From the NCBI GenBank assembly GCA_031323845.1, contig JAVIYP010000003.1, forward strand, positions 11,007-75,006: a stretch of DNA of 64,000 bases, in the 5' to 3' direction. Origin of the DNA: Bacteroidales bacterium (GTDB lineage: Bacteria; Bacteroidota; Bacteroidia; Bacteroidales; UBA7960). Numbering within the stretch: position 1 is the first letter of the stretch; the number at the start of each line of letters is the position of its first letter. The translations under genes were made by a program, and so were the position numbers. Below are positions 3,793-41,804 of this stretch, one piece after another. Below the pieces are notes generated by a model. The model was given only the letters and a program-made list of their open reading frames with translations, did not search any database and was not told the DNA's origin.

Positions 3793-3905
3793 AAACAGAT
3801 AGTGCCGCTCGCATGCAGGCTTTTTATACCAGGGAAAATGATTAAAAACATAAAAATCCTCAAAAACAATCAACATCAGTTATCAATAAGTATAACCTGA
3901 AGCAT

Positions 3906-4752: not shown

Positions 4753-7692
4753 ATGAACAACACGGAATCGGGCATTGCCTTTGACCGCCTGAGGGATCAG
4801 CTGGAAGGCGATTTGTTTCTTGATTATAGCTGGCGCCTGATGTACGCCACGGATGCTTCTGTGTTCAAGGAGCTTCCCGTCGGGGTCTGCCGTCCGGCAA
4901 ATGAAAGCGACCTGGAAAAGATTCTTGCATTTTGCCGCGAACACAAATTGCCGGTAATACCGCGTACTGCCGGCACATCGCTGGCAGGACAGGTGGTTGG
5001 ACACGGCCTTGTGGTTGATTTCTCTCGCTACATGAACGAGATCCTGGAGTTGAATGTCGCAGAAAGGTGGGTCAGGGTTCAACCGGGTGTCATCCTCGAT
5101 GACCTCAACCGCTATCTGGCTCCCCACGGCCTGTTTTTTGCACCGGAAACATCGACAAGCAACCGTTGCATGATTGCAGGGATGGTCGCCAACAATTCCT
5201 GCGGTTCGCATTCGCTGGTTTATGGCAGTACTCGCGACCATACTCTCGAAATCAAAGCCATGCTTTACGATGGAAGCACGGCAGTGTTTGGTGACACGGA
5301 TGCGGATACTTTCCAGAAAAAGTGTGTGGGCAGCAAGCTGGAAAACAAGATTTACAGCGGGCTCTTCGAGATGCTTTCCAAAAAGGAGAACAGGGAAGAG
5401 ATCGTCAGGAACTATCCGGACCCTGGCATTAAAAGAAGAAACACAGGTTATGCGCTTGACCTGCTGTTAAAAGCCAATGTGTTTGGCGGCGAAGAGGCGT
5501 TCAACATGTGCAGGCTTTTGTGCGGTGCTGAGGGCACCCTGGCCTTTTATACCGAGATCAAGCTGAACCTGGTGCCTTTGCCTCCGCCGGAAACCGCGCT
5601 TTTGTGCGTCCATCTGGATACGGTTGAAGACGCCTTGCAGGCAAACCTGATCGCACTGAAATACAAGCCGGTGGCAGTGGAGCTGATCGACAAGGTGATC
5701 CTGGATTGCACCAAAGCCAACATAGGTCAGCGTAAAAACCGTTTTTTCCTGGAGGGAGACCCCGGCGCTATCCTGGTGGTGGAGTTTGCTTGCGACACAA
5801 GCAGCGAAGTTGATGAACTGGCAGGCGGTCTGGAGGCTCACCTCCGCCGGGAGGCCCTTGGCTTTCACTACCCTCTTTTGCGCGGCGGCGACATAAACAA
5901 GGTTTGGAACCTGCGCAAGGCCGGACTGGGCTTGCTGTCGAACATGCCGGGAGATGCCAAACCCGTTGCCGTTATTGAAGACAATGCCGTGCATGTTGAG
6001 GTCCTGCCCATGTTTATCAAGGAAGTGCTGCAGCTTCTGGATAAGCTCAGTCTGAAATGTGTGTTCTTTGCCCATATCGGCACCGGAGAAATTCACATTC
6101 GTCCGATAGTGAACCTCAAGAGCAGGGCTGATGTGGAACGTTTTTACCAGGTGGCCGAGGGTACTGCGCACCTGGTAAAAAAATACAAGGGGTCGCTCAG
6201 TGGCGAGCACGGCGACGGACGGTTGAGAGCCGGCTTCATTCCGCTCGTTATCGGTGAAAAGAACTATGAGCTGTTACGGGAAGTTAAAAAGCTGTGGGAT
6301 CCGCTGAATATTATGAACCCCGGTAAGATCATCGACCCTCCCTCCATGAAGACCTCGCTGCGCTACCTGCCGGGACAGCCTGAAAAAAAGCTCACCACCT
6401 ATTTCAACTACGACAAGACGCTCGGCTTTTTAAGGGCTGTGGAGCAATGCAATGGCTCGGGCGATTGCCGGAAGCCCCCTGCCGCAGGCGGCGTTATGTG
6501 CCCTTCATACCATGCAACCCTCAACGAGTTCGACAGCACAAGGGGCCGGGCAAACCTGCTGCGCGAATTCGTCACCAATTCATCAAAGAAAAACCCGTTT
6601 GACCATAAAGAGTTAATTGACGTACTCGACCTCTGCCTCTCATGCAAGGGCTGCAAGTCGGAATGCCCTTCGAGCGTGGATGTCGGAAAATACAAAGCCG
6701 AAACGCTGCAGCACTATTATGATGCCAACGGTACGCCGTTTGGCGCCAGGGTTACCGGAGCCTATGCCAAACTGAACAAGCTGGGAAGCCTTACGCCGCA
6801 GTTGTTTAATTTCATGGCCACTCAAAGGCTGAGCAGTGCACTGATAAAACGCATGCTCGGTTTTGCAAAGCAGCGAAGCCTGCCGTTGCTGCACCGGCAT
6901 AGTCTGAGGAAGTGGGCTCGAAAACAGCTGCCCGCATTAAACCGGAAAAACGGTTCAGGCAAAATGGTATACCTGTTTTGTGACGAGTTTACCAACTTCA
7001 ATGACACCCAAACGGGCATCCATGCGGTGCTTTTGCTCCATCACCTGGGTTACCGGGTAGAAATTCCCGTGCACGACGAAAGCGGCCGTACCTACCTTTC
7101 GAAAGGCTTGCTGAAAAAAGCCAAGAAGGTGATCGGGAATAACATCCGGCAGCTTTCGGGACTGGTAAGTGCCGAAACGCCTTTGGTCGGCATTGAGCCT
7201 TCTGCCATTCTCGGCTTCCGCGATGAATATCTTGAGCTGGCTGATGCCGGCTTGCTGGAAGCAGCGCAGGCCTTATCCGAAAATGCCTTCACCATTGAAG
7301 AGTTTATTGTTAAAGCTCATGAAAATGGTGAGATAGATGCGGGATTATTCACTAAAGCGAATAGAAAAATATACCTGCACGGCCATTGCCACCAGAAAGC
7401 GCTGTCATCGATTGACTATGGCCATAAGATGCTTTCGATACCTTCAGGAACGGAGGTAAGGAATATTGACTGCGGATGTTGCGGGATGGCCGGTGCTTTT
7501 GGCTATGAAAAGGATCATTATGAGATCAGCATGAAGATAGGTGAGCTGTCGCTGTTTCCAGCGGTCCGGCAGGCCGAAGCCGACGCACTTATCGTGGCCG
7601 CTGGCACAAGCTGTCGCCACCAAATTAAAGATGGTACCGGCCGCGAAGCCCTTCACCCTGCCGATGCCCTTTACCATTGCCTGGTCCTTTGA
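4753..7692 (+). CDS. FAD-linked oxidase fused to Fe-S/CCG domains (YdiJ-like, putative D-2-hydroxyacid dehydrogenase)
   Basis: The N-terminal region has an FAD-binding PCMH-type motif (PRTAGTSLAGQ). It also has the 4Fe-4S motif CLSCKGCKSECPS and a C-terminal Cys-rich CCG-like CGCCGMAG. The 979-aa fusion architecture matches E. coli YdiJ. Confidence 0.8.
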   Translation: MNNTESGIAFDRLRDQLEGDLFLDYSWRLMYATDASVFKELPVGVCRPANESDLEKILAFCREHKLPVIPRTAGTSLAGQVVGHGLVVDFSRYMNEILELNVAERWVRVQPGVILDDLNRYLAPHGLFFAPETSTSNRCMIAGMVANNSCGSHSLVYGSTRDHTLEIKAMLYDGSTAVFGDTDADTFQKKCVGSKLENKIYSGLFEMLSKKENREEIVRNYPDPGIKRRNTGYALDLLLKANVFGGEEAFNMCRLLCGAEGTLAFYTEIKLNLVPLPPPETALLCVHLDTVEDALQANLIALKYKPVAVELIDKVILDCTKANIGQRKNRFFLEGDPGAILVVEFACDTSSEVDELAGGLEAHLRREALGFHYPLLRGGDINKVWNLRKAGLGLLSNMPGDAKPVAVIEDNAVHVEVLPMFIKEVLQLLDKLSLKCVFFAHIGTGEIHIRPIVNLKSRADVERFYQVAEGTAHLVKKYKGSLSGEHGDGRLRAGFIPLVIGEKNYELLREVKKLWDPLNIMNPGKIIDPPSMKTSLRYLPGQPEKKLTTYFNYDKTLGFLRAVEQCNGSGDCRKPPAAGGVMCPSYHATLNEFDSTRGRANLLREFVTNSSKKNPFDHKELIDVLDLCLSCKGCKSECPSSVDVGKYKAETLQHYYDANGTPFGARVTGAYAKLNKLGSLTPQLFNFMATQRLSSALIKRMLGFAKQRSLPLLHRHSLRKWARKQLPALNRKNGSGKMVYLFCDEFTNFNDTQTGIHAVLLLHHLGYRVEIPVHDESGRTYLSKGLLKKAKKVIGNNIRQLSGLVSAETPLVGIEPSAILGFRDEYLELADAGLLEAAQALSENAFTIEEFIVKAHENGEIDAGLFTKANRKIYLHGHCHQKALSSIDYGHKMLSIPSGTEVRNIDCGCCGMAGAFGYEKDHYEISMKIGELSLFPAVRQAEADALIVAAGTSCRHQIKDGTGREALHPADALYHCLVL

Positions 7693-7741: not shown

Positions 7742-7755
7742 CAAGCAAAAAAGCC

Positions 7756-10314
7756 TTAGTCTTCTTTCTGTTCCTCTGTTGAGGAATCAGCAGACTCGTC
7801 TGCCTTCTTTTCCTCATCTTCTTTTTCAGCAGCTTTTTTTGCCGTTTTTTTGGCGGTCTTTTTAACCGCTTTCTTCTCAGATGCAGCCGCATCGTCGTCC
7901 TCTGCCTTTGCCTTTTTAGCAGCTGTGGCCTTTGGCTTTTCTGCCGGCTTTTCTGCAGCCTCTTTGTCTTCCTCTTTTGCCTTCTCTTCTTTGGATGCAG
8001 GCTCTTCCTTCACAACCTCAGCTGCAGCGGCTTTTTCTTTCTCCTTCTTATCTTCCTTAACCGGCGCTTCCTTCTCAGCCTCATCTTTTTTGGCTTTTTC
8101 GGCAGCGGCTTTCTCCTCAAGCTTTTTCAAAGCCTCCTCTTTTTTAGCCTCCTGAACGGTTTTCTCAGACTTCTCTATCTTTGACTTCAGGTTTGCCAAA
8201 ACATCAAGGTCACCAAGCGTGGTTTTTTCAAGACTGTCTTTCATCTTCTTGACCACCTTCTTGGTAGCCTGCTCCTTGGCCTTTTGCTCAGAAACCTCTG
8301 AAGCACGCTCGGCATATTTTATATCCTGGTAAACCTTGGTGTGGGAAACGACGATCTTCTTGCTCTCTTTGTTGAACTCAATGACTTTAAAGTCAAGCGT
8401 TTCGTCCATCTTGGCAGTGGATCCGTCTTCCTTTACTACATGCCTTGTCGGGGCAAAGCCCTCAACGCCGTAGGGAAGGGCCACAATGACTCCCTTGTCG
8501 GAAGTGCCTACAATGGTACCCTGGTGGACGGAATCAATGGTAAACACCGACTCAAACACCTCCCACGGGTTCTCTTCCAGCTGTTTGTGTCCAAGGCTCA
8601 GACGGCGGTTTTCTTTGTCAACATCCAGGACAACCACCTCTATGCTCTCACCGATCTTGGTGAACTCTGCAGGATGCTTGATCTTTTTGCTCCAGCTAAG
8701 ATCGCTGATGTGGATCAGTCCGTCAACGCCTTCTTCGAGTTCTACAAAGATGCCGAAGTTGGTAAAGTTCCTGACGGTTGCCGTGGTTTTGCTTCCCACC
8801 GCATACTTTTCTTCAATATCTGACCAGGGATCCGGGATCAGCTGTTTGATGCCGAGTGACATCTTTCTCTCTTCACGGTCGAGCGTAAGGATCACGGCCT
8901 CCACTTCATCACCCACTTTCAGGAAGTCCTGTGCTGTGCGCAGATGCTGTGACCACGACATTTCCGATACGTGAATGAGGCCTTCAACTCCTGATGCAAT
9001 CTCAATAAAGGCGCCATAATCTGCAATAACTACCACCTTGCCGGTGACTTTGTCGCCCACTTTAAGGTTTGGATCAAGCGAATCCCACGGATGCGGTGTA
9101 AGCTGCTTGAGGCCCAGAGCGATGCGCTTCTTTTGCTCATCAAAGTCAAGAATAACCACGTTGATTTTCTCATCGAGCTTGACAATCTCTTCCGGATGGT
9201 TGATGCGTCCCCAGGAAAGGTCGGTGATGTGGATCAAACCGTCGACACCGCCAAGGTCAACAAACACACCGTAAGAGGTGATGTTTTTGACCGTTCCTTC
9301 CAGGATCTGACCTTTTTCAAGCTTGGCAATGATCTCAGCTTTCTGGATTTCAAGCTCTGCCTCAATCAGTGCCTTGTGGGAAACGACCACGTTTTTGTAT
9401 TCGTGATTGATCTTAACCACTTTGAAATCCATGGTTTTCCCAACATAAATATCATAATCGCGAATCGGTTTCACGTCAATTTGTGATCCCGGTAAAAACG
9501 CTTCAATACCGAAAACGTCAACGATAAGACCACCTTTGGTACGGCACTTAACAAAGCCCTGGATGATCTCATCTTTTTCTTTTGCTTCGTTGATGCGCTC
9601 CCATGAACGCAGGGTGCGCGCTTTTTTGTGCGACAACACCAGCTGTCCGCTGCTGTCTTCCTGGCTTTCAACGTAAACTTCTATTTTGTCGCCAATCTTC
9701 AGGTCGGGGTTGTACCTCAGTTCTGCAGCCGGCAAGATGCCATCGGACTTATATCCAATGTTAACGACGATCTCGCGCGTGTTTTTCGACACCACGGTGC
9801 CGTCAATAACTTCACCTTCACCGATAGACTTCAGCGTCTCCTCGTAAATGTTTTCGAGGCGTTGACGCTCTTCTGACGAATAAAGGTCTAGCTTTTTGTT
9901 CACTGCTTCCCAGTCGAAATCACCGGGCTCCTGCAGTTCAGGAACTGTAGTCTGGATTTCCTCTGAAGGTGTTTCTTCCCCAGGGGTTGTTTGTTCCTCT
10001 TCAACGGGGGGTTCTGCGGTGGTTTCAGCTAAGGGCGCTTCGGTTTCTGCTTCAGGAGAGCTTTCCGTTTCAGGTATAGCGTCTGCTTCTGCTTTAACTG
10101 AAGTGTCTTCAGCCTGCTCTCCGGCTACTTCGGCTTGTGGCGACTCCGGTTCTGCAGGGGTTTCTTCCTGCTCTTCCGTTTCAGGTGCTTGTGCTTCCTG
10201 CGGATCATCATCCGCTTTCTTTTCCTGTGAAGCCTTGGGGTCGTCTGCCTGATCCCGGGTTTCCTCTACCGGCTTTTCCTCCGGATTGGCGGTGTTTTTT
10301 TGTTCTTCTGACAT
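7756..10314 (-). CDS. rpsA: 30S ribosomal protein S1 with long low-complexity N- and C-terminal extensions
   Basis: S1/OB repeats recur, for example GTVKNITSYGVFVDLGGVDGLIHITDLSW, GKVVVIADYGAFIEIASGVEGLIHVSEMSW and ATVRNFTNFGIFVELEEGVDGLIHISDLSW. There is a ~130-aa acidic E/P/T-rich N-terminus and a ~190-aa K/E/A-rich C-terminus. Confidence 0.9.
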   Translation of the reverse strand: MSEEQKNTANPEEKPVEETRDQADDPKASQEKKADDDPQEAQAPETEEQEETPAEPESPQAEVAGEQAEDTSVKAEADAIPETESSPEAETEAPLAETTAEPPVEEEQTTPGEETPSEEIQTTVPELQEPGDFDWEAVNKKLDLYSSEERQRLENIYEETLKSIGEGEVIDGTVVSKNTREIVVNIGYKSDGILPAAELRYNPDLKIGDKIEVYVESQEDSSGQLVLSHKKARTLRSWERINEAKEKDEIIQGFVKCRTKGGLIVDVFGIEAFLPGSQIDVKPIRDYDIYVGKTMDFKVVKINHEYKNVVVSHKALIEAELEIQKAEIIAKLEKGQILEGTVKNITSYGVFVDLGGVDGLIHITDLSWGRINHPEEIVKLDEKINVVILDFDEQKKRIALGLKQLTPHPWDSLDPNLKVGDKVTGKVVVIADYGAFIEIASGVEGLIHVSEMSWSQHLRTAQDFLKVGDEVEAVILTLDREERKMSLGIKQLIPDPWSDIEEKYAVGSKTTATVRNFTNFGIFVELEEGVDGLIHISDLSWSKKIKHPAEFTKIGESIEVVVLDVDKENRRLSLGHKQLEENPWEVFESVFTIDSVHQGTIVGTSDKGVIVALPYGVEGFAPTRHVVKEDGSTAKMDETLDFKVIEFNKESKKIVVSHTKVYQDIKYAERASEVSEQKAKEQATKKVVKKMKDSLEKTTLGDLDVLANLKSKIEKSEKTVQEAKKEEALKKLEEKAAAEKAKKDEAEKEAPVKEDKKEKEKAAAAEVVKEEPASKEEKAKEEDKEAAEKPAEKPKATAAKKAKAEDDDAAASEKKAVKKTAKKTAKKAAEKEDEEKKADESADSSTEEQKED

Positions 10315-21836: not shown

Positions 21837-22493
21837 TTAAAACTCACCCTGCCTGTTAAAAACGTATTGCAAGATATTTGCTCCCATTTGCAGCGCCTTC
21901 AGCCGCACCTCTTCTGGATTTCCGTGAACGGCCTGATCTTCCCACCCGTTGCCCAGGTCTATTTCATAAGTATAATACAGTACAAGGCGTCCGTCGTAAA
22001 AAATTCCGAAACCCTGCGGAGGCTTTCCGTCATGCTCATGAATTTTTGGCGGGCCATCAGGAAACGAAAAGGACTGATGATATATGGGGTGGGAGAAGGG
22101 CAACTCAATAAGTTCATGGTCCGGGAAAATTTTTTTCAATTCTCTGCGGAAGTAGGGATCAAGGCCATAATTGTCGTCAACATGCAGAAAACCGCCACCT
22201 GTAAGGTAATTTCGGATGTTCTGCGCCTCCTGCGCGGAAAAAACCACATTGCCATGCCCTGTCATGTAAACAAAAGGGTAATTGAACAGCTGGGAGCTCC
22301 CTGCCTCTACGGTGGCGATGTGCTGACTTATCGTGGTGCCAATGTGTTCGTTGGCAAAACGCACAAGGTTGGGCAGGGCCGTCGGATTGGAATACCAGTC
22401 GCCACCACCGCGATACTTAAGCGTGGCTATCTGGTAGTGCTGCGCCTGAATGCCCATTGGCAGAAAAAAGAGTAGGATCAGGATAATTTTCAT
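21837..22493 (-). CDS. DUF4159 domain protein (secreted)
   Basis: It has a signal peptide, MKIILILLFFLPMGIQAQ, followed by ATLKYRGGGDWYSNPTALPNL, which is typical of DUF4159. Confidence 0.6.
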   Translation of the reverse strand: MKIILILLFFLPMGIQAQHYQIATLKYRGGGDWYSNPTALPNLVRFANEHIGTTISQHIATVEAGSSQLFNYPFVYMTGHGNVVFSAQEAQNIRNYLTGGGFLHVDDNYGLDPYFRRELKKIFPDHELIELPFSHPIYHQSFSFPDGPPKIHEHDGKPPQGFGIFYDGRLVLYYTYEIDLGNGWEDQAVHGNPEEVRLKALQMGANILQYVFNRQGEF

Positions 22494-22519
22494 GAGTTAA
22501 TAATAACTTAGGTACTTTA

Positions 22520-22890
22520 TTGTCTGTGTTATGATTGAATTTGCAGATGTGCAAATGTGCAGATGTGCAAATGTGCAGATATGCCATGTTTGCAGAAATT
22601 TTTCACTTTTCATTTTTCATTTTTCACTTTATTAGCTTTTGGCCTTTGGCTTTTAGCAAGAAGATCTGAAACGAGCTTCCGCCTTCGAGCTATCTTGTTT
22701 CCTTCGGGCTCCTAATCCTTCAAAAAGAAAAAACCAACAAATAAACGATTAAACGATTAAACGATTCAACAATAGTTTTCTGACTTCTGACCTCTGGCCT
22801 TCGACTTCAGACTTCCTGGCAGATTTCTCACTACGTTCGAAATAAACCTCTTCCCGGGAGATCATGATCTACGAAATGCTCATTTCATGA
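22520..22890 (+). repeat. Full-length mosaic intergenic element made of five different short tandem-repeat blocks
   Basis: There are five repeat blocks. GCAGATGT-type x5 lies at 22543-22585, with an 8-nt period. TTTTCAC/T x4 lies at 22599-22630 and CTTTTGG/CCTTTGG/CTTTTAG at 22636-22656, both with a 7-nt period. AAACGATT x3 lies at 22743-22766 (8 nt). TTCTGAC-type x5 lies at 22778-22816 (7 nt). The element is flanked by promoter-module-like sequence at both ends. Confidence 0.9.
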
Positions 22891-22891
22891 A

Positions 22892-23599
22892 CTACAAAAG
22901 CCCGTTCGCGGTGTTCCACTGGATACAAAGCGCCAGGGCTGCCGTCTCGGTTCTTAAACGGTGAGCCCCCATGCTTATTGCCTTAAAACCACGATCCTGG
23001 GCCGCTGCAATTTCCGCTGCTGTAAAATCTCCTTCCGGCCCGACAAGTACCAGGGTGTTCCTGCCCGGCTCGCAGCTTTCTGACGTGCTGAACTTTTCGC
23101 CGCCGGCACAATGGGCGATCAGCGCAACTTCCGGCAATGGCTGACTGATAAACTCCGCCAGTGTATGCGCCGGGTTCAGCTTCGGCAGGTAAGCCCGGAG
23201 CGATTGTTTCATGGCCGCCACCATTATTTTTTCCAGCCGATGGGTTTTAAGCACACGCCGTTCGCTCTTTTCACAGATCAAAGGTGTGATTTCGTCCACC
23301 CCGCATTCCGTTGCCTTCTCCAGAAACCACTCAAAACGGTCGATGTTTTTGGTGGGTGCTACTGCAATATGAAGGTGAAAAGGCCTTTTTCCGAAGCCTT
23401 CCTGCCTGTGAACGATGGTTGCGGTAGTTTCCGCCGGGTGTACCTCAAGAAGGTGTGCCCTGCACCAGGTACCCCTTCCGTCAACAATACCGATCTCATC
23501 CCCGGGCTTCATACGCAACACCCGTGTGCAATGCCTGCTTTCATCGCCATCAAGGGTAATCACATCCCCGCTCAGATCCTTAACATAGAAAAGATGCAT
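22892..23599 (-). CDS. rsmE: 16S rRNA (uracil1498-N3)-methyltransferase
   Basis: It has a PUA-like N-terminus with the DGDESRHCTRVLRMKPGD motif and a SPOUT C-terminal domain with LVLVGPEGDFTAAE. Confidence 0.85.
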   Translation of the reverse strand: MHLFYVKDLSGDVITLDGDESRHCTRVLRMKPGDEIGIVDGRGTWCRAHLLEVHPAETTATIVHRQEGFGKRPFHLHIAVAPTKNIDRFEWFLEKATECGVDEITPLICEKSERRVLKTHRLEKIMVAAMKQSLRAYLPKLNPAHTLAEFISQPLPEVALIAHCAGGEKFSTSESCEPGRNTLVLVGPEGDFTAAEIAAAQDRGFKAISMGAHRLRTETAALALCIQWNTANGLL

Positions 23600-24767: not shown

Positions 24768-27700
24768 TCAGTATATCAGATTCTTATCAAGCAATAGCGC
24801 CAGGCTTTGCCGGTACAGCAGGGGATGGATGCTGAACATGCCGTTGTTCTGTGTGATGATGCCGCGGTCCTTCAAACGCATCATCATCATAAATGCCTGT
24901 GCCTTACCTGTATTCATGATGTGTGCAAGCTCCTCTTCATTCAGGATCTCATGCAGTACAAGCGCGTGCAGCCCGAAGATGACCTCATCGGGCAGGTTGT
25001 AGATAAAACTCAGGTCAAGCGTGTCGAGCGAGTTCATGTACACCACATTTTCCTCCACTTTACTGCTGCTGTGCAACCAGAGCTGAAGGGCAAAGGAGAT
25101 GTTCGACTGTGACAGACCATGTATTTTTTCAAAAAACTTTTCTCTCAGATGTAGTTGTTGTTCTTCCTCCGGCTTTTTGAGGAAGTTTCGGAGTTGCTGA
25201 TCTTCTTTTGAAGGAAGAAAATGCAGTTTGTAGCCGCTGGCATTATGCCTGAGCATGATGATCTTCCGGACTTTCTCTGTTTCAAGGCTTTTCATTTTGA
25301 TGAGCTGGGGGAAATAGCCGAACATACCGATCGCCTTGTCAAGAAAGGTGGCGGCATACAATCCGCAGCTGCACATCCAGAACACCTGTTTGCTTGTGGC
25401 ACTGATGATCTCAAAAAGACGTTTCAGCAGTTGAAATCCCGCCGGCTGCCTCATGTAGAATAAATGCAGCTTGTCAACAAAAAGTACAAAAGGTGCGTTC
25501 TCCTCAACAAAAGCAAGGAACTCATCATAACCGGCAAAAGCCTGACCTCTCAAACTGTTTCCCAATAATTCAAAAAGCTGTTCTTCAGACTTCAGGCGTT
25601 TTTCAGGCAGGCATTGATAATACGAAGTGTCATCTTTCAGTGTTTCTGCAGAGAACATGTGCACAAAGGTGCTGATCCCGCTGCCTTTTTCTCCGTAAAT
25701 CAGGGTTGCGGTAAATGAGCCCTCCTGCCATTTTTTGTAGGCATTGATGAGCATGTCCTTTTCTGTTTTCCTCGGAAAATAAAAAGCTGCATCGTCCAGC
25801 GGTTCATTGACAAACAGCCTCCGGTAAACAAAGGGCAGCTTTTGTATCCTGTCGTGATCACTGGCCAGAAAGTCCGACACTTCTATGGAAATGTCTTTCG
25901 AAAGCTTTTGCAGTCCCACGTAAGAACGCAGGACATTAATCATGGAGATCGACTTTTTCAGGCCCGCCCTGAAGAATACACGGCTTTTTTGCAGCGCGGT
26001 TTTTAAGACGGTTTTTATGGCAATGAGCACACGCTCCCTGTTTTTCAGGGCTTTTGTCCGCAGGATCCGGTATCTGATTTTTTCGACATGCGAATTGTCC
26101 GTGAGTTTTAGAAGTGCATCGTAGAGTTGACTGACGGTGTCGTCCACATCCTGTTGTATGGCCTCTATAAAATCGGTAAACCTTGCCGACAGTTCTTCAT
26201 AGGTGTCAAGGGCTCTCTGTATCCCTGCTTTGGCTTCGGAAGCCAGTTCCTCCAGACCTGTGTCCTTTTGCTTCTCAGGCATGAGTAAAGCCGACTCCAC
26301 ATTAAACAGCACCATACGGCCGAGGTCCTGAAAACGCTCATCCAGGCTGTTCAGCTCCCCGATGCTTTTCATCCTGCACTGGATGATTGATTTGTTAAGG
26401 CCTCCGGCAATTTCAAATTCAATCAGCCGCCGCAGCGATATCCCTTCAAGTGCCTTATCTGCATAGGCCTTTCCGGGGTCAAAATCGCGTATCAATATCC
26501 GCTTCCTCGATTGAAGCGACAGCGCCTCACAAAGCTCGTCCTTAACACCGGTGATAAGCTCGGGAAACTCCTGCGCCACCATGCTTCGGCTCACCTCAGG
26601 AATGATGATGTTGTGTAAATTTTTTCCGGCACTATACTTAAGAGTCTGAAGCTCTTTAGTCAACGTGTCGGGATCGCTCCCGTGGATGTCTTTTTGCGAT
26701 GCTGTAAGAAAGCGTTTTATGCGCAGCATTGCCTGGCTTACCGCTTTTTTCTTATCCTGGAGCCTGTTTTGAAAAACAAGGTTGATCAGCGCAGCATTGC
26801 CGGTCAGGATGTAGGCCTCCTGGTTGAACTTCCAGTCGTCGGCCAGAACGAAAAGGGTGTTTAACCTGCGGTTAACAGCAGTTACGTACCTCCTGCGGAT
26901 TTTTTTTCGCCGGTGTTTGCGGTAAACCTCCGGACGTAATACGGCGGGCGACTCAAGTGTGCCAGCAATTTCAACCTGTTGTTCAAACAGTTTGTCAGTT
27001 GTGCGCAGTGCTTCCTTCAGGGACGGCCTGAGCTCTCTCCGGGCGGCTTCAATCTTTTCTTTGGTGGCATGAATGGCCGGGATGAGCTCCTCCCTGAACG
27101 TGCTGGTTACCTCTGCCTTTTGCTTGTTACGGTTGATGAGGTCCATAATGAGCCTGAAAAACCGCTCATCAGCCTGCCAGAGTTCGTTGGCCAGCAGTGT
27201 CAGGGTCTTCATGGCGTCATCGGCAACAGGTGCAAAGAGTGAGAACAGCCTGTTCTCATAGTAACGAAGCGTTAAGGAGCGCGCCGGGATCTTTTGTCTC
27301 CAAACCGGCGGTTGTTTTTCCTTTTTTCCAAGTTTTGTCCTGACCCACTTTCCCAACAGGTAATATCGCCGGTGAAGCGCATAAGAGCCGCGTTTCAGCG
27401 CCTTTATAAACACCGTGGAGCGAGAATCGCCCGGCAATTTCCGAAAGCGCTCCTCTGCCTGTGCGGTAAACCAAAAGGCTTCCATGTCGTGACAAAATGC
27501 AGCAATCTTGTCATCAAAATCTGAGAATAAAGTCTCCGGGGTGTGTTTTTCACGATGGCTCATCCAGCTTTCCAGCAAGGCCAGGATGCTTTTCCTGTGC
27601 TCCAGGTGGTCATTTATGAAACCTGTCTCCGTGCCGGGTGACCGGTAGTCTTCGAGTTTGTCAATCAGGTGTGTTGCTGACTCTTCGTATGCCTCAAGCA

Positions 27701-27803
27701 ATGTTATCAGCGCTTTGAACCTATGGTCCAAAGGCTTCAGCAATGTGCCCGGAAGAAGATTATGCAGCTGCTCTTTGTGGGCTTTCAGCGTTTCCTGTAT
27801 CAT
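24768..27803 (-). CDS. Hypothetical 1011-aa protein with a long helical N-terminal region, a degenerate Orc1/Cdc6-like AAA+ module and a C-terminal winged-helix-like domain
   Basis: TLIYGEKGSGISTFV is P-loop-like but has Ile where the Lys is expected. FVLFVDKLHLF is Walker B-like but has Lys where the Glu is expected. The C-terminal NEEELAHIMNTGKAQAFMMMMRLKDRGIITQNNGMF looks like a wHTH. I recognise no motif in the first ~650 aa. Confidence 0.5.
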   Translation of the reverse strand: MIQETLKAHKEQLHNLLPGTLLKPLDHRFKALITLLEAYEESATHLIDKLEDYRSPGTETGFINDHLEHRKSILALLESWMSHREKHTPETLFSDFDDKIAAFCHDMEAFWFTAQAEERFRKLPGDSRSTVFIKALKRGSYALHRRYYLLGKWVRTKLGKKEKQPPVWRQKIPARSLTLRYYENRLFSLFAPVADDAMKTLTLLANELWQADERFFRLIMDLINRNKQKAEVTSTFREELIPAIHATKEKIEAARRELRPSLKEALRTTDKLFEQQVEIAGTLESPAVLRPEVYRKHRRKKIRRRYVTAVNRRLNTLFVLADDWKFNQEAYILTGNAALINLVFQNRLQDKKKAVSQAMLRIKRFLTASQKDIHGSDPDTLTKELQTLKYSAGKNLHNIIIPEVSRSMVAQEFPELITGVKDELCEALSLQSRKRILIRDFDPGKAYADKALEGISLRRLIEFEIAGGLNKSIIQCRMKSIGELNSLDERFQDLGRMVLFNVESALLMPEKQKDTGLEELASEAKAGIQRALDTYEELSARFTDFIEAIQQDVDDTVSQLYDALLKLTDNSHVEKIRYRILRTKALKNRERVLIAIKTVLKTALQKSRVFFRAGLKKSISMINVLRSYVGLQKLSKDISIEVSDFLASDHDRIQKLPFVYRRLFVNEPLDDAAFYFPRKTEKDMLINAYKKWQEGSFTATLIYGEKGSGISTFVHMFSAETLKDDTSYYQCLPEKRLKSEEQLFELLGNSLRGQAFAGYDEFLAFVEENAPFVLFVDKLHLFYMRQPAGFQLLKRLFEIISATSKQVFWMCSCGLYAATFLDKAIGMFGYFPQLIKMKSLETEKVRKIIMLRHNASGYKLHFLPSKEDQQLRNFLKKPEEEQQLHLREKFFEKIHGLSQSNISFALQLWLHSSSKVEENVVYMNSLDTLDLSFIYNLPDEVIFGLHALVLHEILNEEELAHIMNTGKAQAFMMMMRLKDRGIITQNNGMFSIHPLLYRQSLALLLDKNLIY

Positions 27804-29385: not shown

Positions 29386-29467
29386 CACGTCTGAGTCAGG
29401 ATTTGATGGAATTCCGGCTCAGGGCATTCAAAAAAACACTTTTTCAGCACACAGGCGCATGATCATG

Positions 29468-29532
29468 GAAGTCGGAGGCCGGAAAATTATTGTTGAATCG
29501 TTTATTTGTTGAATCGTTTGATCGTTGGTTGG
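29468..29532 (-). repeat. Mosaic element fragment (TTCTGAC-type and AAACGATT-type blocks, inverted)
   Basis: GGAAGTCGGAGGCCGGAAAATTATTGTTGAATCGTTTATTTGTTGAATCGTTTGATCGTTGGTTGG is collinear with the reverse complement of 22735-22816 but has fewer repeat units. Confidence 0.8.
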
Positions 29533-29646
29533 GCTGCCGGCATCCTGCGAGCTTGCTGCTTCATGCAAAACAAAGGAAGTAATGAAGATGTTTCAGGATA
29601 TTTAAAAAAAAGCGTATTTTTATGGGATTGCAAAAATGGAAAAACT

Positions 29647-31059
29647 ATGAAAAAACTATGCTTCTTATTAATGGTCATTGCTCTCGCTTCCTGCAGCATG
29701 CCGGGTCCCGGAACGGTAACGGTCACGGGGGTTGTTGAAAACCCGACAGGCACGGAGGTAGAGGTCTTTTACTATAAGGATTTCATTACCAACTCCATGG
29801 AAAAGCTTGTTGTGTCTCTCGATGAACACAATGCCTTCTCCGCTACCCTGCCTCTGACGCAAGCTGAATTCGTGTACGTCAGCATTCCGCGGCGCACCTT
29901 CATGCTGTATTTGAAGCCGGGTGCAAAAACGCACATGTTGTTTGATGCCTCCGACCCGGAAAACATCCCTGTTGTCAGCGGTGATTTTGAAAAGGAAAAC
30001 AGCTTCTTTCTCTCTTACCGCATGCTTGTCGGACAGAAACACTCGCATTCCGATGTTTTTTCGATGATGCAGGAAGCTGAAGAAGCCCTGGAGTTTAAGG
30101 CGTATGTGCAAGGTATTTACGACGAACGAAAGCAATTTTTAACGGAACATCCCTTATATGCTGAACTTGACCGGGATTTTGTCCGTCATTTCGAACTGGA
30201 CATCCTGTATCAAAAGTATTTCTATCTGATGCAGTATGCTTCTGTGCTGGAGTTCCTGTTTGAACCCGATGTCATGCCGGAGTTAACAGATGAGTTTTTT
30301 GCTTTTCTTGATGATGAGAACCTGTTCAGCGACAAACATACCCTTTCACGGCAGTATTACAACTTCCTGAACCATTACCTGCGTTACAAAATGGCCATGC
30401 TTGCCGATGACGACGATGACAGATCGCGCCAGGTCACCCAGTTTGATCTTGCCACAGAGCTGTTTTCCGGCAAAAGTCGTGATCTTGTGCTTGCTGATGT
30501 GGTGATTTCGGCGCTCAGTTTCGGTGATTTTGAGGAAGCGATCGGTCTTTACCGGCGCTTTTCTGACATGCGTCCGTCAGGTGATGTTGCCGCGATTGTC
30601 CTGGCAGAATATACGGCCCATCAGGCATTGGCTCCCGGCAAGCCTGCGCCGGCCTTCACGCTGACTGACATTGACGGACAGGAAGTGTCGCTGGATGATT
30701 TTCTTGGGAAGGTTGTATATCTTGACTTCTGGGCAAGCTGGTGCGGACCTTGCCTGCAACAGATTCCGCATGCCAAAGAGCTGAAGCAGCGTATGGCCGG
30801 CCGTGATGACCTTGTGTTTTTGTACATTTCCGTAGATACCGACCAGCAGGCCTGGCGCAACATGGTTGCCGACCGCGACATCCAGGGCGTGCACCTCAAC
30901 GTGCCCGGCTTCAGCCATGAGGTCCCGCAAAGTTACAACCTGAAAGGCGTACCAACATTTTACCTGATAGGACGGGATGGAAAAATAGCTGATAACCGAC
31001 CGCCCAGGCCAAGCCAGGAACGTATCGATGAGGTATTGATGGCCGCCCTGGAACAATAA
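29647..31059 (+). CDS. TlpA-like thiol:disulfide oxidoreductase lipoprotein with a large N-terminal domain
   Basis: It has the lipoprotein signal MKKLCFLLMVIALASC and a C-terminal thioredoxin fold with WASWCGPC. I chose the start at 29647 rather than the track start at 29506. Confidence 0.8.
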   Translation: MKKLCFLLMVIALASCSMPGPGTVTVTGVVENPTGTEVEVFYYKDFITNSMEKLVVSLDEHNAFSATLPLTQAEFVYVSIPRRTFMLYLKPGAKTHMLFDASDPENIPVVSGDFEKENSFFLSYRMLVGQKHSHSDVFSMMQEAEEALEFKAYVQGIYDERKQFLTEHPLYAELDRDFVRHFELDILYQKYFYLMQYASVLEFLFEPDVMPELTDEFFAFLDDENLFSDKHTLSRQYYNFLNHYLRYKMAMLADDDDDRSRQVTQFDLATELFSGKSRDLVLADVVISALSFGDFEEAIGLYRRFSDMRPSGDVAAIVLAEYTAHQALAPGKPAPAFTLTDIDGQEVSLDDFLGKVVYLDFWASWCGPCLQQIPHAKELKQRMAGRDDLVFLYISVDTDQQAWRNMVADRDIQGVHLNVPGFSHEVPQSYNLKGVPTFYLIGRDGKIADNRPPRPSQERIDEVLMAALEQ

Positions 31060-37473: not shown

Positions 37474-37540
37474 CTCTATGTTTTTCATTTGTCTGTGTGT
37501 GCTTTCGAATGAATAAATTTCATGTACATTTGCAGGGAAA
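37474..37540 (+). promoter_or_regulatory. Conserved ~65-nt promoter module with a -7 box TACATTTG (37525-37532) upstream of fabD
   Basis: CTCTATGTTTTTCATTTGTCTGTGTGTGCTTTCGAATGAATAAATTTCATGTACATTTGCAGGGAAA aligns without gaps over the first ~44 nt, and with a 1-nt gap thereafter, to 2664-2730. The -7 box lies 37 nt before the ATG at 37570. Confidence 0.55.
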
Positions 37541-37569: not shown

Positions 37570-38445
37570 ATGAAAGCATATGTATTTCCCGGTCAGGGCG
37601 CGCAGTTTGTCGGTATGGGTAAAAACCTTTATGAAGACAATGCCGGGGCAAAAGAGATGTTTGAGAAGGCCAATGAAATCCTGGGTTTCCGGATCACCGA
37701 CCTGATGTTTGGTGGCACTGACGAGGATTTGCGGCAAACCAACGTTACCCAGCCAGCCATTTTCCTTCATTCGGTTATTCTGGCTCACACCCTTGGGGCT
37801 GATTTTCAGCCGGATATGGTTGCAGGCCACAGTCTGGGAGAGTTTTCTGCCCTGGTGGCTGCAAAGGCTTTATCGTTTGAAGATGGCCTGGTGCTTGTGT
37901 CAAAAAGGGCAGGAGCGATGCAGAAAGCCTGCGAAGTGAAGCCCTCTACCATGGCAGCCATCATCGGACTGGAAGATAAGGTGGTGGAGCAGGTTTGTGC
38001 CGGTATCTTTGATGTGGTTGTTCCTGCGAATTATAACAGTCCGGGCCAGTTGGTAATATCCGGCACCATACAGGGTGTGGACGTTGCCTGCGAAAAGTTA
38101 AAGGAAGCTGGTGCCAAACGCGCTCTTCCGCTGAAGGTGGGAGGGGCCTTTCATTCACCTCTCATGGAACCCGCCCGGCTGGAACTTGCCAAAGCCATCA
38201 ACGAAACCGCATTTAACGTACCCGTTTGTCCGGTATACCAGAATGTGGATGCTCAACCTTATACAGACCCTGAAAAGATCAAGGAAAACCTCATCGCTCA
38301 GCTCACAAATCCCGTCCGCTGGACACAAATCTCTGAAAATATGATCCGTGACGGGGCGAAGGTGTTTGTTGAAGTGGGCCCGGGTAAGGTGTTGCAGGGT
38401 CTGGTCAAAAAGGTAAACCACGAGGTTGACGCTTACAGCGCTTAG
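37570..38445 (+). CDS. fabD: Malonyl-CoA:ACP transacylase
   Basis: It has the active-site motif GHSLGEFSA, the N-terminus FPGQGAQFVGMG and a length of 291 aa. Confidence 0.95.
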   Translation: MKAYVFPGQGAQFVGMGKNLYEDNAGAKEMFEKANEILGFRITDLMFGGTDEDLRQTNVTQPAIFLHSVILAHTLGADFQPDMVAGHSLGEFSALVAAKALSFEDGLVLVSKRAGAMQKACEVKPSTMAAIIGLEDKVVEQVCAGIFDVVVPANYNSPGQLVISGTIQGVDVACEKLKEAGAKRALPLKVGGAFHSPLMEPARLELAKAINETAFNVPVCPVYQNVDAQPYTDPEKIKENLIAQLTNPVRWTQISENMIRDGAKVFVEVGPGKVLQGLVKKVNHEVDAYSA

Positions 38446-38517
38446 CAGATGTGCAGATGCGCAGATGTGCAAATGTGAAGATGTGCAGGTGTGAAGATGT
38501 GAAGCTGTAAGGATGCT
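38445..38517 (+). repeat. GCAGATGT-type 8-nt tandem array, 9 units
   Basis: The units are GCAGATGT GCAGATGC GCAGATGT GCAAATGT GAAGATGT GCAGGTGT GAAGATGT GAAGCTGT AAGGATGC. The first G is the last base of the fabD TAG stop. Confidence 0.9.
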
Positions 38518-38536
38518 GAAATAAAACACAGAGCGG

Positions 38537-40725: not shown

Positions 40726-40780
40726 CCTTAAACTTTAAACCTCAAACCTTCAACATCTAACTTCTAACCTCTAACTTCTA
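40726..40780. repeat. G-free 7-nt tandem array (CCTTAAA/CTTCTAA type, 8 units), a variant of the TTCTGAC block
   Basis: The units are CCTTAAA CTTTAAA CCTCAAA CCTTCAA CATCTAA CTTCTAA CCTCTAA CTTCTA. The TTCTAAC units differ by one base from TTCTGAC at 22778-22816. The array overlaps the last five codons and the stop of galE. Confidence 0.85.
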
Positions 40781-41804
40781 TAATACCTGCTGCCAGGTTT
40801 TGCTCCCATTTCCAGGCGGTGTCCATCATAACATCAAGTCCTTTTTCAGCCTTCCAGCCAAGCCTGATGTTGGCCAGGGTAGTGTCTGCCCACACCTGTT
40901 CGATATCACCGGGCCGCCGTCCGCTGAATGTCCGGTTCAGCTTAACACCACTGACCTTCTCAAAAGTGTTTATGGCCTCAAGGACGCTGTAACCGGTGCC
41001 GGTGCCAAGGTTAAACACCTCGTAGGGATCCTGGCTGATCTTCCCAAGCATCCGCTCAACAGCCACCACATGCGCCCTTGCCAGATCTCCAACGTAGATA
41101 TAATCCCTGATGCAGGTGCCGTCGGGAGTGTTGTAATCGTTGCCGAACACCGTCAGCTTGTCACGCTTTCCAATGGCAGTCTGGGTGATGTAAGGGACCA
41201 GGTTGTCGGGCACACCGATGGGCAGTTCACCGATCAGGGCACTCTCATGGGCGCCGATGGGATTGAAATACCGGAGTGAGATGGCGGTTACCGGTTTTTG
41301 CCGTACCGTGTCGCGAATGATCTCTTCTGATATCTGCTTGGTGTTTCCGTAAGGTGAGATGGCCGCTTTTACCGGTGCCTTTTCAGTGACCGGCAGTTCA
41401 TCAGGCTGGCCGTACACGGTGCAGGAAGAGGAAAAAACCAGGTTGCGTGTGTCCAGGAGCTGCATGCACTCAAGTAGGTTGATCAGGGAAACAAGGTTGT
41501 TGCGATAGTATTTGAGCGGCTCGTTAACCGATTCACCTACAGCCTTGTACGCTGCAAAATGTATGACGCCCCGGATGTCGCGGTGCTGCCTGAAAAACGC
41601 TTCCAGCGACGGCAGGTCGCACATGTCGAGCTTCTCAAATAGCGGCTTCTTACCCGTGATCCGGCTTATCTGCTTCACAATAACCTCCGATGAGTTCGAA
41701 AGGTTATCAATGATCAATGCATCAAAACCGCTCTTTTGCAGCTCCACAACCGTGTGTGAACCGATATATCCCGTTCCGCCGGTTACCAGAATCTTGGGTC
41801 GCAT
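40764..41804 (-). CDS. galE: UDP-glucose 4-epimerase
   Basis: MRPKILVTGGTGYIGSH provides the Rossmann motif, and YGNTK the catalytic Tyr/Lys. I prefer the ATG at 41804; the track ORF starts at an upstream GTG. Confidence 0.9.
   Translation of the reverse strand: MRPKILVTGGTGYIGSHTVVELQKSGFDALIIDNLSNSSEVIVKQISRITGKKPLFEKLDMCDLPSLEAFFRQHRDIRGVIHFAAYKAVGESVNEPLKYYRNNLVSLINLLECMQLLDTRNLVFSSSCTVYGQPDELPVTEKAPVKAAISPYGNTKQISEEIIRDTVRQKPVTAISLRYFNPIGAHESALIGELPIGVPDNLVPYITQTAIGKRDKLTVFGNDYNTPDGTCIRDYIYVGDLARAHVVAVERMLGKISQDPYEVFNLGTGTGYSVLEAINTFEKVSGVKLNRTFSGRRPGDIEQVWADTTLANIRLGWKAEKGLDVMMDTAWKWEQNLAAGIIEVRG

Follow-up and report, generated by a model that had tools for sequence, protein, structure and literature searches.

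The intergenic gap between rsmE and a downstream DUF4159 gene in an environmental Bacteroidales metagenome-assembled genome (MAG) is filled by five tandem arrays of 7- and 8-nt units. We analyzed this gap, which is exactly 398 nt long (22494-22891; open reading frame (ORF) map, Pfam), within a 64,000-nt stretch of DNA (the window; all coordinates are window positions) and in comparison with other Bacteroidota. We consider it reasonably probable that the arrays are slippage-generated and recombination-copied leader or spacer DNA, for which we infer a cis-acting function.

Read along the minus strand, on which both flanking genes lie, the rsmE stop codon is followed after 79 nt by five GTCAGAA-type heptamers, three AATCGTTT octamers and approx. 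85 nt of unique sequence, and then by three CCAAAAG-type heptamers, four GTGAAAA heptamers, a 16-nt spacer and five CACATYTG-type octamers, the last of which ends 49 nt before the DUF4159 ATG. Numbered in the direction of the coordinates, and with units written first as on the plus strand, block 1 (22543-22582, minus; sequence reading and Tandem Repeats Finder (TRF)) comprises five octamers of the form GCAGATGT/GCAAATGT, with a degenerate sixth unit at 22583-22590, and block 2 (22600-22627, minus; sequence reading and TRF) comprises four TTTTCAC/TTTTCAT heptamers (GTGAAAA/ATGAAAA on the gene strand). Block 3 (22636-22656, minus; sequence reading) consists of the heptamers CTTTTGG/CCTTTGG/CTTTTAG. 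After a unique central segment (22657-22742, no strand assigned) that is free of repeats and matches nothing else in the window, block 4 (22743-22766, minus; sequence reading and TRF) consists of three AAACGATT octamers and block 5 (22778-22812, minus; sequence reading and TRF) of the heptamers TTCTGAC/TTCTGAC/CTCTGGC/CTTCGAC/TTCAGAC, which are G-rich on the gene strand (GTCAGAA/GTCGAAG/GCCAGAG). The presence of five such arrays in this gap had first been proposed in a reading made from the sequence alone (the sequence-only reading), and both TRF and shuffling bear it out: TRF arrays cover 145 of the 398 nt as compared to a mean of 2.8 and a maximum of 70 nt in 500 dinucleotide-preserving shuffles, and the best TRF score in the gap is 80 as compared to 58 or less in the shuffles.

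Of the 33 intergenic gaps in the window that measure 60 nt or more, 5 contain arrays with periods of 7, 8, 14 or 16 nt, while arrays with periods of 6, 9 or 12 nt sit inside ORFs; the only exception to the intergenic location of arrays whose period is not a multiple of 3 is a marginal row of 20 nt with period 7 (score 33) that falls within an ORF. With 3 to 5 head-to-tail units of 7 or 8 nt per array (at least three units of 5-11 nt define the class), and with the octamer found at three sites and each of the other blocks at two within 64 kb, the arrays belong to a known class of elements, the long simple-sequence repeats, which have been described since the 1990s and whose function is poorly understood.

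Repeat modules and orthologous gaps

The five blocks are not scattered independently through the window but are combined into two composite modules, each of which is present twice. Copy A of module 1 (22538-22668, minus; alignment, nhmmer E = 1.5e-41) comprises blocks 3 and 2, the non-repeat spacer CTGCAAACATGGCA and block 1, and copy B (2542-2667, plus; alignment, nhmmer E = 3.6e-37) shows the same block order and spacer, with similar unit numbers, approx. 80 nt upstream of an ATG at 2746. The segment 22542-22657 matches 2662-2556 on the opposite strand with 89% identity over 82 nt and with a further 16-nt match, the latter corresponding to an exact 16-nt match between block 3 and 2556-2571. 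Module 2 has its copy A at 22730-22822 (minus; alignment, nhmmer E = 8.8e-27), comprising blocks 5 and 4 and the shared non-repeat sequence AAAACTATTGTTG, and its copy B at 29460-29540 (plus; alignment, nhmmer E = 1.7e-22), approx. 110 nt upstream of a lipoprotein-type ATG at 29648; here 22735-22780 matches 29526-29482, and the two copies also have the non-repeat sequence AAAAYTATTGTTG in common. As block order, rough unit numbers and non-repeat spacers are all shared, the two copies of each module can be regarded as paralogous. Each of the four copies is oriented toward a downstream start codon and lies on the strand of the respective gene, and this uniform orientation is consistent with DNA that serves the flanking genes as leader or lies upstream of their promoters.

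The octamer is found at a third site (38445-38520, plus), where approx. nine units in the GCAGATGT orientation form an array that is oriented opposite to block 1 relative to the genes; 22543-22580 matches 38445-38501, and the first base of this array is the last base of the TAG stop codon of the upstream gene. A C-rich heptamer array at 40726-40780 (plus) resembles block 5 at the level of the unit only (CTTCTAAC as compared to CTTCTGAC; BLAST found no match). It includes the stop codon (complement CTA, 40764-40766) and approximately the last five codons of an ORF at 40764-41804 (minus), and it either grew from the 3' end of this ORF or overwrote that end. The view that each block recurs elsewhere in the window thus holds for 2556-2667, 29468-29532 and 38445-38517 and is reduced to a likeness between units for 40726-40780; given that each of the two modules is found twice and the octamer array at three places within the 64 kb, the conclusion drawn from it, i.e., that the gap contains part of a dispersed modular family and not a single local microsatellite, stands. 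A stretch at 7834-8103 was also considered as a relative of block 3, given a weak BLAST/TRF link with a 15-nt match, and was rejected as an unrelated coding low-complexity stretch; it lies in an ORF (7755-10314, minus) with a Lys/Ala/Glu-rich low-complexity region encoded by 9- and 12-nt repeats.

The order of rsmE followed by the DUF4159 gene is kept in three relatives, in which the gap measures 141 nt (L118), 121 nt (L211) and 32 nt (L212) and contains no arrays of 7- or 8-nt units. The arrays between rsmE and the DUF4159 gene are therefore lineage-specific additions to what was ancestrally a short gap. The comparison of presence and absence among relatives that the sequence-only reading had proposed thus reveals a clear difference at this locus, and unit numbers differ too in orthologous gaps of other species (approx. 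10 as compared to 4-5 units, L108/L111). No arrays were found in the 31 kb available for L211 and L212. L118, the closest relative, carries arrays in other gaps, namely four units of GCAAATGT that begin at the stop codon of a BrkB-family gene and, at 8775-8915, 14 units of AACCAGT followed directly by six perfect units of AATTAGA that end 9 nt before the ATG of a TspO/MBR-family gene; the latter is another heptamer mosaic in leader position.

Orientation and pairing of arrays in Bacteroidota

The distribution of the octamer was assessed by a scan of one genome per species with the pattern CACATYTGCACATYTGC, which yielded at least 117 loci. At least 100 of these carry Bacteroidota names (Chitinophagaceae, Mucilaginibacter, Prevotellaceae, Chryseobacterium, Flavobacterium and Bacteroidales MAGs). 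Among the matches listed, 9 loci are in bins with a Prevotellaceae-like context, 8 loci of other phyla carry only 2-3 units, 111 of the 127 arrays with at least three units are intergenic, and the octamer unit persists from Prevotellaceae to Chitinophagaceae. What the sequence-only reading had missed is that the octamer block is common to many Bacteroidota and that the class of element had, in general terms, been described before.

Two side observations concern the genomes scanned. Octamer arrays were found in bins named "Christensenella sp. UBA1685" (L013, L031, L048, L077, L084, L085, L109) and "bacterium H07689" (L103, L111), where their context is that of the Prevotellamassilia timonensis loci, beside a second repeat (hairpin GTAGAGCGCGACGTTTnAAACGTCGCCCCCAT); L111 and the P. 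timonensis locus L108 show 87% identity over 7.9 kb, and these bins probably contain Prevotellaceae contigs. In four Sphingobacteriia/Chitinophagia genomes (L012, L086, L087, L092) the octamer arrays adjoin an apparently orthologous tRNA gene.

Using these loci together with the window, and gene boundaries from a simple in-house ORF caller, we found that the strand of an array depends on whether it lies next to a stop or a start codon. Arrays of the CACAT family within 25 nt after a stop codon had more G than C on the sense strand in 55 cases and the reverse in 4, while those within 25 nt before a start codon had more C than G in 35 cases and the reverse in 2. The same polarity was observed for arrays of other units, with ratios of 46:10 after stops (p = 1e-6) and 31:9 before starts (p = 7e-4). 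It persists in co-directional, convergent and divergent gaps, for solitary arrays, and when the count is restricted to complete ORFs of 900 nt or more (22:3 and 35:3). Array-free gaps show no skew after stops (70 with G>C as compared to 78 with C>G) and a mild skew before starts (117:71 in favor of C); for stop-proximal arrays, inheritance of the polarity from background composition is thereby ruled out.

The position of the octamer arrays is polar as well. The 3' end of CACATYTG arrays lies near a gene (median distances of 42 nt for co-directional starts, 23 of 55 arrays being within 21 nt, and of 14 nt for stops of convergent genes), and the 5' end lies far from the other neighbor (medians of 119-156 nt). 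The order [CARATGTG]n...[CACATYTG]n is found in all 45 inverted pairs and its opposite in none. The window gap follows the rule, with G-rich heptamers on the rsmE side and G-poor octamers before the DUF4159 start, as do the arrays at 38445 and 40726. In many stop-adjacent arrays, the repeat unit takes in the stop triplet together with the final codons of the gene, and stop triplets occur at 0.83 per 8 nt on the sense strand as compared to 0.45 on the antisense strand, which partly explains the G>C skew after stops; CARATGTG arrays have no stop triplet, and this account therefore cannot explain them. Overall, the strict orientation of the arrays relative to genes hints at a role in gene expression.

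In many gaps of other genomes, the arrays at the two edges are reverse complements of each other, separated by a unique spacer of 20-250 nt, with a unit that varies from gap to gap. Such gaps fold into long stems (e.g., z = -5.0 in L023). In L089, an identical 31-nt array (GATTACGGATTGCGGATTGCGGATTACGGATT) directly follows a stop codon at 3821-3852 and, 3 kb away, at 6886-6917; both gaps have a complementary array before the next gene and unrelated spacers, and the second folds with z = -8.5. No paired-array hairpin is present in the window gap, where the arrays are non-complementary and no excess folding was detected.

Some orthologous gaps from different species (flanks 72-87% identical) have kept octamer arrays at both edges, with different unit numbers and with spacers that can no longer be aligned, while in others the unit has been replaced and the paired architecture kept. 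A 100-nt gap of one Mucilaginibacter (L081, 1461-1560) carries an inverted pair of 21-nt units (AATGATTRCACCGAT...); the orthologous gap of another Mucilaginibacter (L033) has an inverted pair of CACATYTG octamers instead. Two simple roles for the arrays were considered and rejected. Pairing between a CACATYTG array in the 5' untranslated region (UTR) and a CARATGTG array in the 3' UTR of one gene would require both to be present, which is so in 1 of 635 complete genes as compared to 3.3 expected; a function of the pairs as intrinsic terminators is at odds with the order of the flanking tracts, T before and A after the pair, and with loops of 20-250 nt.

Tentatively, these data can be read as a polar system, common to the whole phylum, in which tandem arrays would occupy the edges of intergenic gaps and of which the window mosaic would be an unpaired member. 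The conserved CACATYTG unit, possibly a binding array of a conserved factor, and many gap-specific heptamers would be placed directly against stop and start codons with the G-rich strand reading away from the gene. In many co-directional gaps, complementary edge arrays would form a stem that joins the upstream stop to the downstream start region and that could couple or insulate the expression of neighboring genes, initiation being without Shine-Dalgarno pairing.

Origin and possible function of the arrays

Under the reading that we favor, the gap would have grown from a length of a few tens of bases to its 398 nt through the gain of long simple-sequence repeats with 7- and 8-nt units, which most likely arise and change length by replication slippage. 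Module 1 (approx. 125 nt, blocks 3-2-spacer-1) and module 2 (approx. 90 nt, blocks 5-4) would have been copied between gaps, more likely by recombination or gene conversion than by transposition. The gap as a whole (minus strand), delimited by the ORF map, Pfam and the relatives, would consist of trailer DNA of rsmE and of leader or promoter-upstream DNA belonging to the DUF4159 gene, constrained in orientation such that a G-poor, ATG-free CACATYTG strand precedes the start and a G-rich strand lies behind the upstream stop. In Bacteroidota, translation initiation lacks a Shine-Dalgarno sequence and relies on unstructured leaders. In our view, the most likely function is that of a structure-poor leader or spacer of variable length that would act in cis and tune or insulate expression of the downstream gene.

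Several points weigh against this reading. Any function of the gap arrays is something that we infer; the comparison loci were pre-selected by the octamer pattern, with at least 117 of them listed, and the gene boundaries behind the polarity counts rest on a crude ORF caller. After the identical MAG protein, the next best match of the window RsmE shows only 69% identity. The arrays near gene boundaries numbered 9 in divergent, 16 in convergent and 58 in co-directional gaps, and as octamer arrays are as common in convergent as in divergent gaps, a plain promoter role is weakened. Finally, a leader model leaves the G-rich stop-adjacent arrays in convergent gaps and in solitary cases unexplained.

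A neutral origin of the arrays with selection on orientation only is a serious rival, possible though on balance unlikely. Under this hypothesis the arrays would be slippage junk, and their orientation would reflect selection against harmful orientations (upstream ATGs, G-rich leaders) combined with harmless duplications that span stop codons. The great diversity of units between gaps, the wholly different units that orthologous gaps can carry, the frequent inclusion of the stop triplet and last codons in stop-adjacent arrays, and the absence of arrays from the three relatives are all as this hypothesis would have it. It does not readily account, however, for one octamer unit that is kept from Prevotellaceae to Chitinophagaceae and in orthologous gaps with unalignable spacers, for CARATGTG arrays that abut stops in a single orientation (55:4) without containing a stop triplet, or for the single polarity of all 45 inverted pairs.

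The octamer itself may have a more specific meaning. Bacteroidota sigma-A promoters consist of a -33 TTTG and a -7 TAnnTTTG element. From the match of its TTTG form to TAnnTTTG at 7 of 8 positions, the octamer block is probably a binding array for a conserved factor. That it would be a sequence-specific array bound by sigma-A through the -7-like CACATTTG, or by another DNA- or RNA-binding protein, and would function as an outward promoter cluster or polar insulator, is a rather unlikely explanation. In its favor, where an array ends no more than 30 nt from the ATG (22 genes), the final CAYATTTG unit stops 5-34 nt short of that ATG, which is the range occupied by exact -7 boxes in control genes, and exact boxes are rarer in the array gaps (2/22) than in controls (29% of 485). 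The unit is conserved across the phylum, and its polarity is strictly outward. In the window, no exact -7 box TAnnTTTG is present at 22494-22891 on either strand, and only the CACATTTG units approach one, the last of them 58 nt before the ATG. Against such a function, arrays that abut stops would fire antisense into genes, divergent gaps are not enriched, the 8-nt period does not match the usual -33/-7 spacing, and other units without TTTG follow the same polarity.

It is very unlikely that the composite modules are non-autonomous mobile elements similar to miniature inverted-repeat transposable elements (MITEs). Mobility could explain why each module has two copies in 64 kb with 80-90% identity that extends into non-repeat spacers, and elsewhere the outer ends of octamer pairs (TRATGTG...CACATYA) resemble terminal inverted repeats. 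Alignments and self-complementarity analysis revealed no terminal inverted repeats at the module ends or in the gap, however, and no duplicated target bases in the flanks of the two copies of each module. Copies in other genomes share arms and have unrelated spacers (L089), and no associated transposase was found. The composite modules were found nowhere outside the window; a search of metagenomes with the module-1 junction pattern gave 89 chance matches without flanking arrays, a number close to what would roughly be expected for a pattern with 18 fixed bases given the amount of sequence searched. Among plasmid and phage sequences, nothing useful came up beyond a 47-nt match to one Bacillus plasmid; phages had no match.

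An independent plus-strand, repeat-rich RNA starting near 22535-22545, as suggested by the sequence-only reading, is highly improbable. The location of both flanking genes on the minus strand would leave room for such a transcript, and a weak likeness of 22511-22541 to two promoter modules at 2664-2730 and 37474-37540 had been taken to point to its promoter; this likeness amounts to one common 10-mer (TTGTCTGTGT) and the edge of an array. The other copies of the repeat modules run opposite to such a promoter, always toward a gene start. A consensus scan of the gap found neither a sigma-70 promoter nor a terminator, and besides the lack of an exact -7 box, the candidate TGAATTTG has a poorly spaced -33 element. 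Folding was no better than that of shuffles (z = +1.30 for the gene strand and +0.64 for the plus strand), which supports the claim that no array forms an obvious hairpin except that the octamer array is partly self-complementary (15-nt arms, 87%). The Rfam search that had been recommended yielded no match at the gathering score in the whole window and only three chance-level matches at 22400-23000 (E = 0.78-4.2). Coding potential was considered for the gap as well and rejected; the small ORFs (44, 52 and 56 aa) have no Pfam support and their translations are of low complexity. The rsmE-DUF4159 gap is non-coding intergenic DNA with no gene of its own.

The promoter-like module common to 2664-2730 and 37474-37540 (plus) is an observation in its own right. 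It is approx. 65 nt long (TTTTTCAT..TCTGTGTGT..ATGAAnAAATTTCATGTAnATTTG) and ends in exact -7 boxes, TAAATTTG (2716-2723) and TACATTTG (37525-37532), which lie 22 and 37 nt, respectively, before ATGs at 2746 and 37570.

The chance that the mosaic is an assembly artefact is negligible: although the genome is a MAG and assemblers can be misled by repeats, no array exceeds approx. 50 nt, which is below read length, unique sequence flanks the arrays, and similar arrays are found in isolate genomes and complete long-read chromosomes (e.g., L023, L024, L015, L037).

The genes that flank the gap were identified as follows: rsmE (22892-23599, minus), encoding the 16S rRNA U1498 methyltransferase, by Pfam PF04452 and PF20260 and a 100% match to a Bacteroidales MAG protein, and the DUF4159 gene (21837-22493, minus) by Pfam PF13709 (E = 9e-71). 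Two genes away from the gap, an ORF at 24768-27803 (minus) encodes 1011 aa, for which the only Pfam signal is a weak, sub-threshold match to AAA_16.

By itself, the window gap is one more intergenic case of simple-sequence repeats, and the wider pattern of polarity and persistence is the part worth pursuing. If confirmed, it would mean that one octamer unit is kept across a whole phylum, that a single strand rule at stop and start codons applies to arrays of any unit, and that orthologous gaps keep arrays, or at least their paired architecture, as the intervening sequence turns over. This pattern points to selection on cis-acting signals in Bacteroidota, in which promoters, leaders and translation initiation differ from the Escherichia coli model and intergenic signals are poorly mapped. 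In practical terms, arrays can contain or overwrite stop codons and last codons, which affects gene calling.

Comparison with known repeat systems

Long simple-sequence repeats of prokaryotes, with units of 5-11 nt among which heptamers are commonest, were surveyed by Mrazek, Guo & Shah (2007, as summarized in PMC4679880). As in the window, these repeats are tandem, lie between genes if their period is not divisible by 3, and are unstable between relatives, which was ascribed to polymerase slippage (PMC4679880). That survey is not known to have described fixed composite modules, a unit shared across a phylum or a strand polarity at starts and stops, as observed here. A 2025 survey placed Bacteroidota among the prokaryotic phyla richest in short tandem repeats (PMC12699852).

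A closer parallel is provided by the TAACTGA direct repeats of Beggiatoaceae, Cyanobacteria and five Bacteroidetes (MacGregor 2015; PMC4679880). These are likewise intergenic, lying in forward orientation 1-43 nt before starts and, for one set, in reverse orientation immediately downstream of a stop; in Gramella, Aequorivita and Elizabethkingia, several heptamers form mosaics within the gaps, and same-order relatives have shorter, repeat-free gaps (PMC4679880). Conversely, none of the five blocks in the window is TAACTGA, and octamers are included here; the TAACTGA paper proposed a site for a post-transcriptional regulator and reported no general G/C polarity and no inverted pairs (PMC4679880). 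Our literature search, the coverage of which was incomplete so that novelty is unproven, found no description of the CACATYTG octamer, the composite modules, the G/C polarity rule or the paired-array stems.

Heterocystous cyanobacteria carry families of heptamers known as short tandemly repeated repetitive (STRR) sequences. In Nostoc PCC 7120, heptamer repeats occur near start codons, and reporter data hint at modulation of expression (bioRxiv 10.1101/2022.06.06.494920). The STRR and Nostoc heptamers resemble the window arrays in being dispersed tandem families in non-coding DNA near promoters and start codons, but they belong to another phylum and consist of other units, with no evidence of common descent.

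In Haemophilus influenzae, the 7-bp repeats upstream of hmw act as promoter or 5' UTR "rheostats", in which the number of units can grade expression. Like the window arrays, they form a 7-nt tandem array between upstream signals and a start codon. For rheostats of this type in host-adapted pathogens, see also a survey of simple-sequence repeats (PMC2651432). The hmw rheostats are single arrays at contingency loci of a pathogen, whereas in the window, which stems from an environmental Bacteroidales MAG, several different arrays precede a gene of housekeeping type.

The sequence-only reading had set the gap apart from repetitive extragenic palindromic (REP) sequences and bacterial interspersed mosaic elements (BIMEs), from clustered regularly interspaced short palindromic repeats (CRISPR) and from MITEs with terminal inverted repeats, and Rfam, self-complementarity and the nature of the units agree with this. 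CRISPR have direct repeats of 23-55 nt with unique spacers of similar length, while the units in the gap are 7-8 nt long and contiguous. In Porphyromonas gingivalis, the minisatellite-bearing MITEs possess terminal inverted repeats, and their repeat units are longer. They resemble the window modules as Bacteroidota elements with internal tandem repeats; the window has neither the terminal inverted repeats nor the longer units. In Enterobacteria, a REP is one imperfect palindrome, 20-40 nt in length, and is linked to RAYT transposases, and the only self-complementary stretch in the gap is the 15-nt one inside the octamer array. REPs and BIMEs are, like the arrays, a dispersed intergenic family often placed just after stops; the window differs from REPs in its direct tandem units and its lack of folding, whereas the paired arrays in the gaps of other Bacteroidota form hairpins much as BIMEs do.

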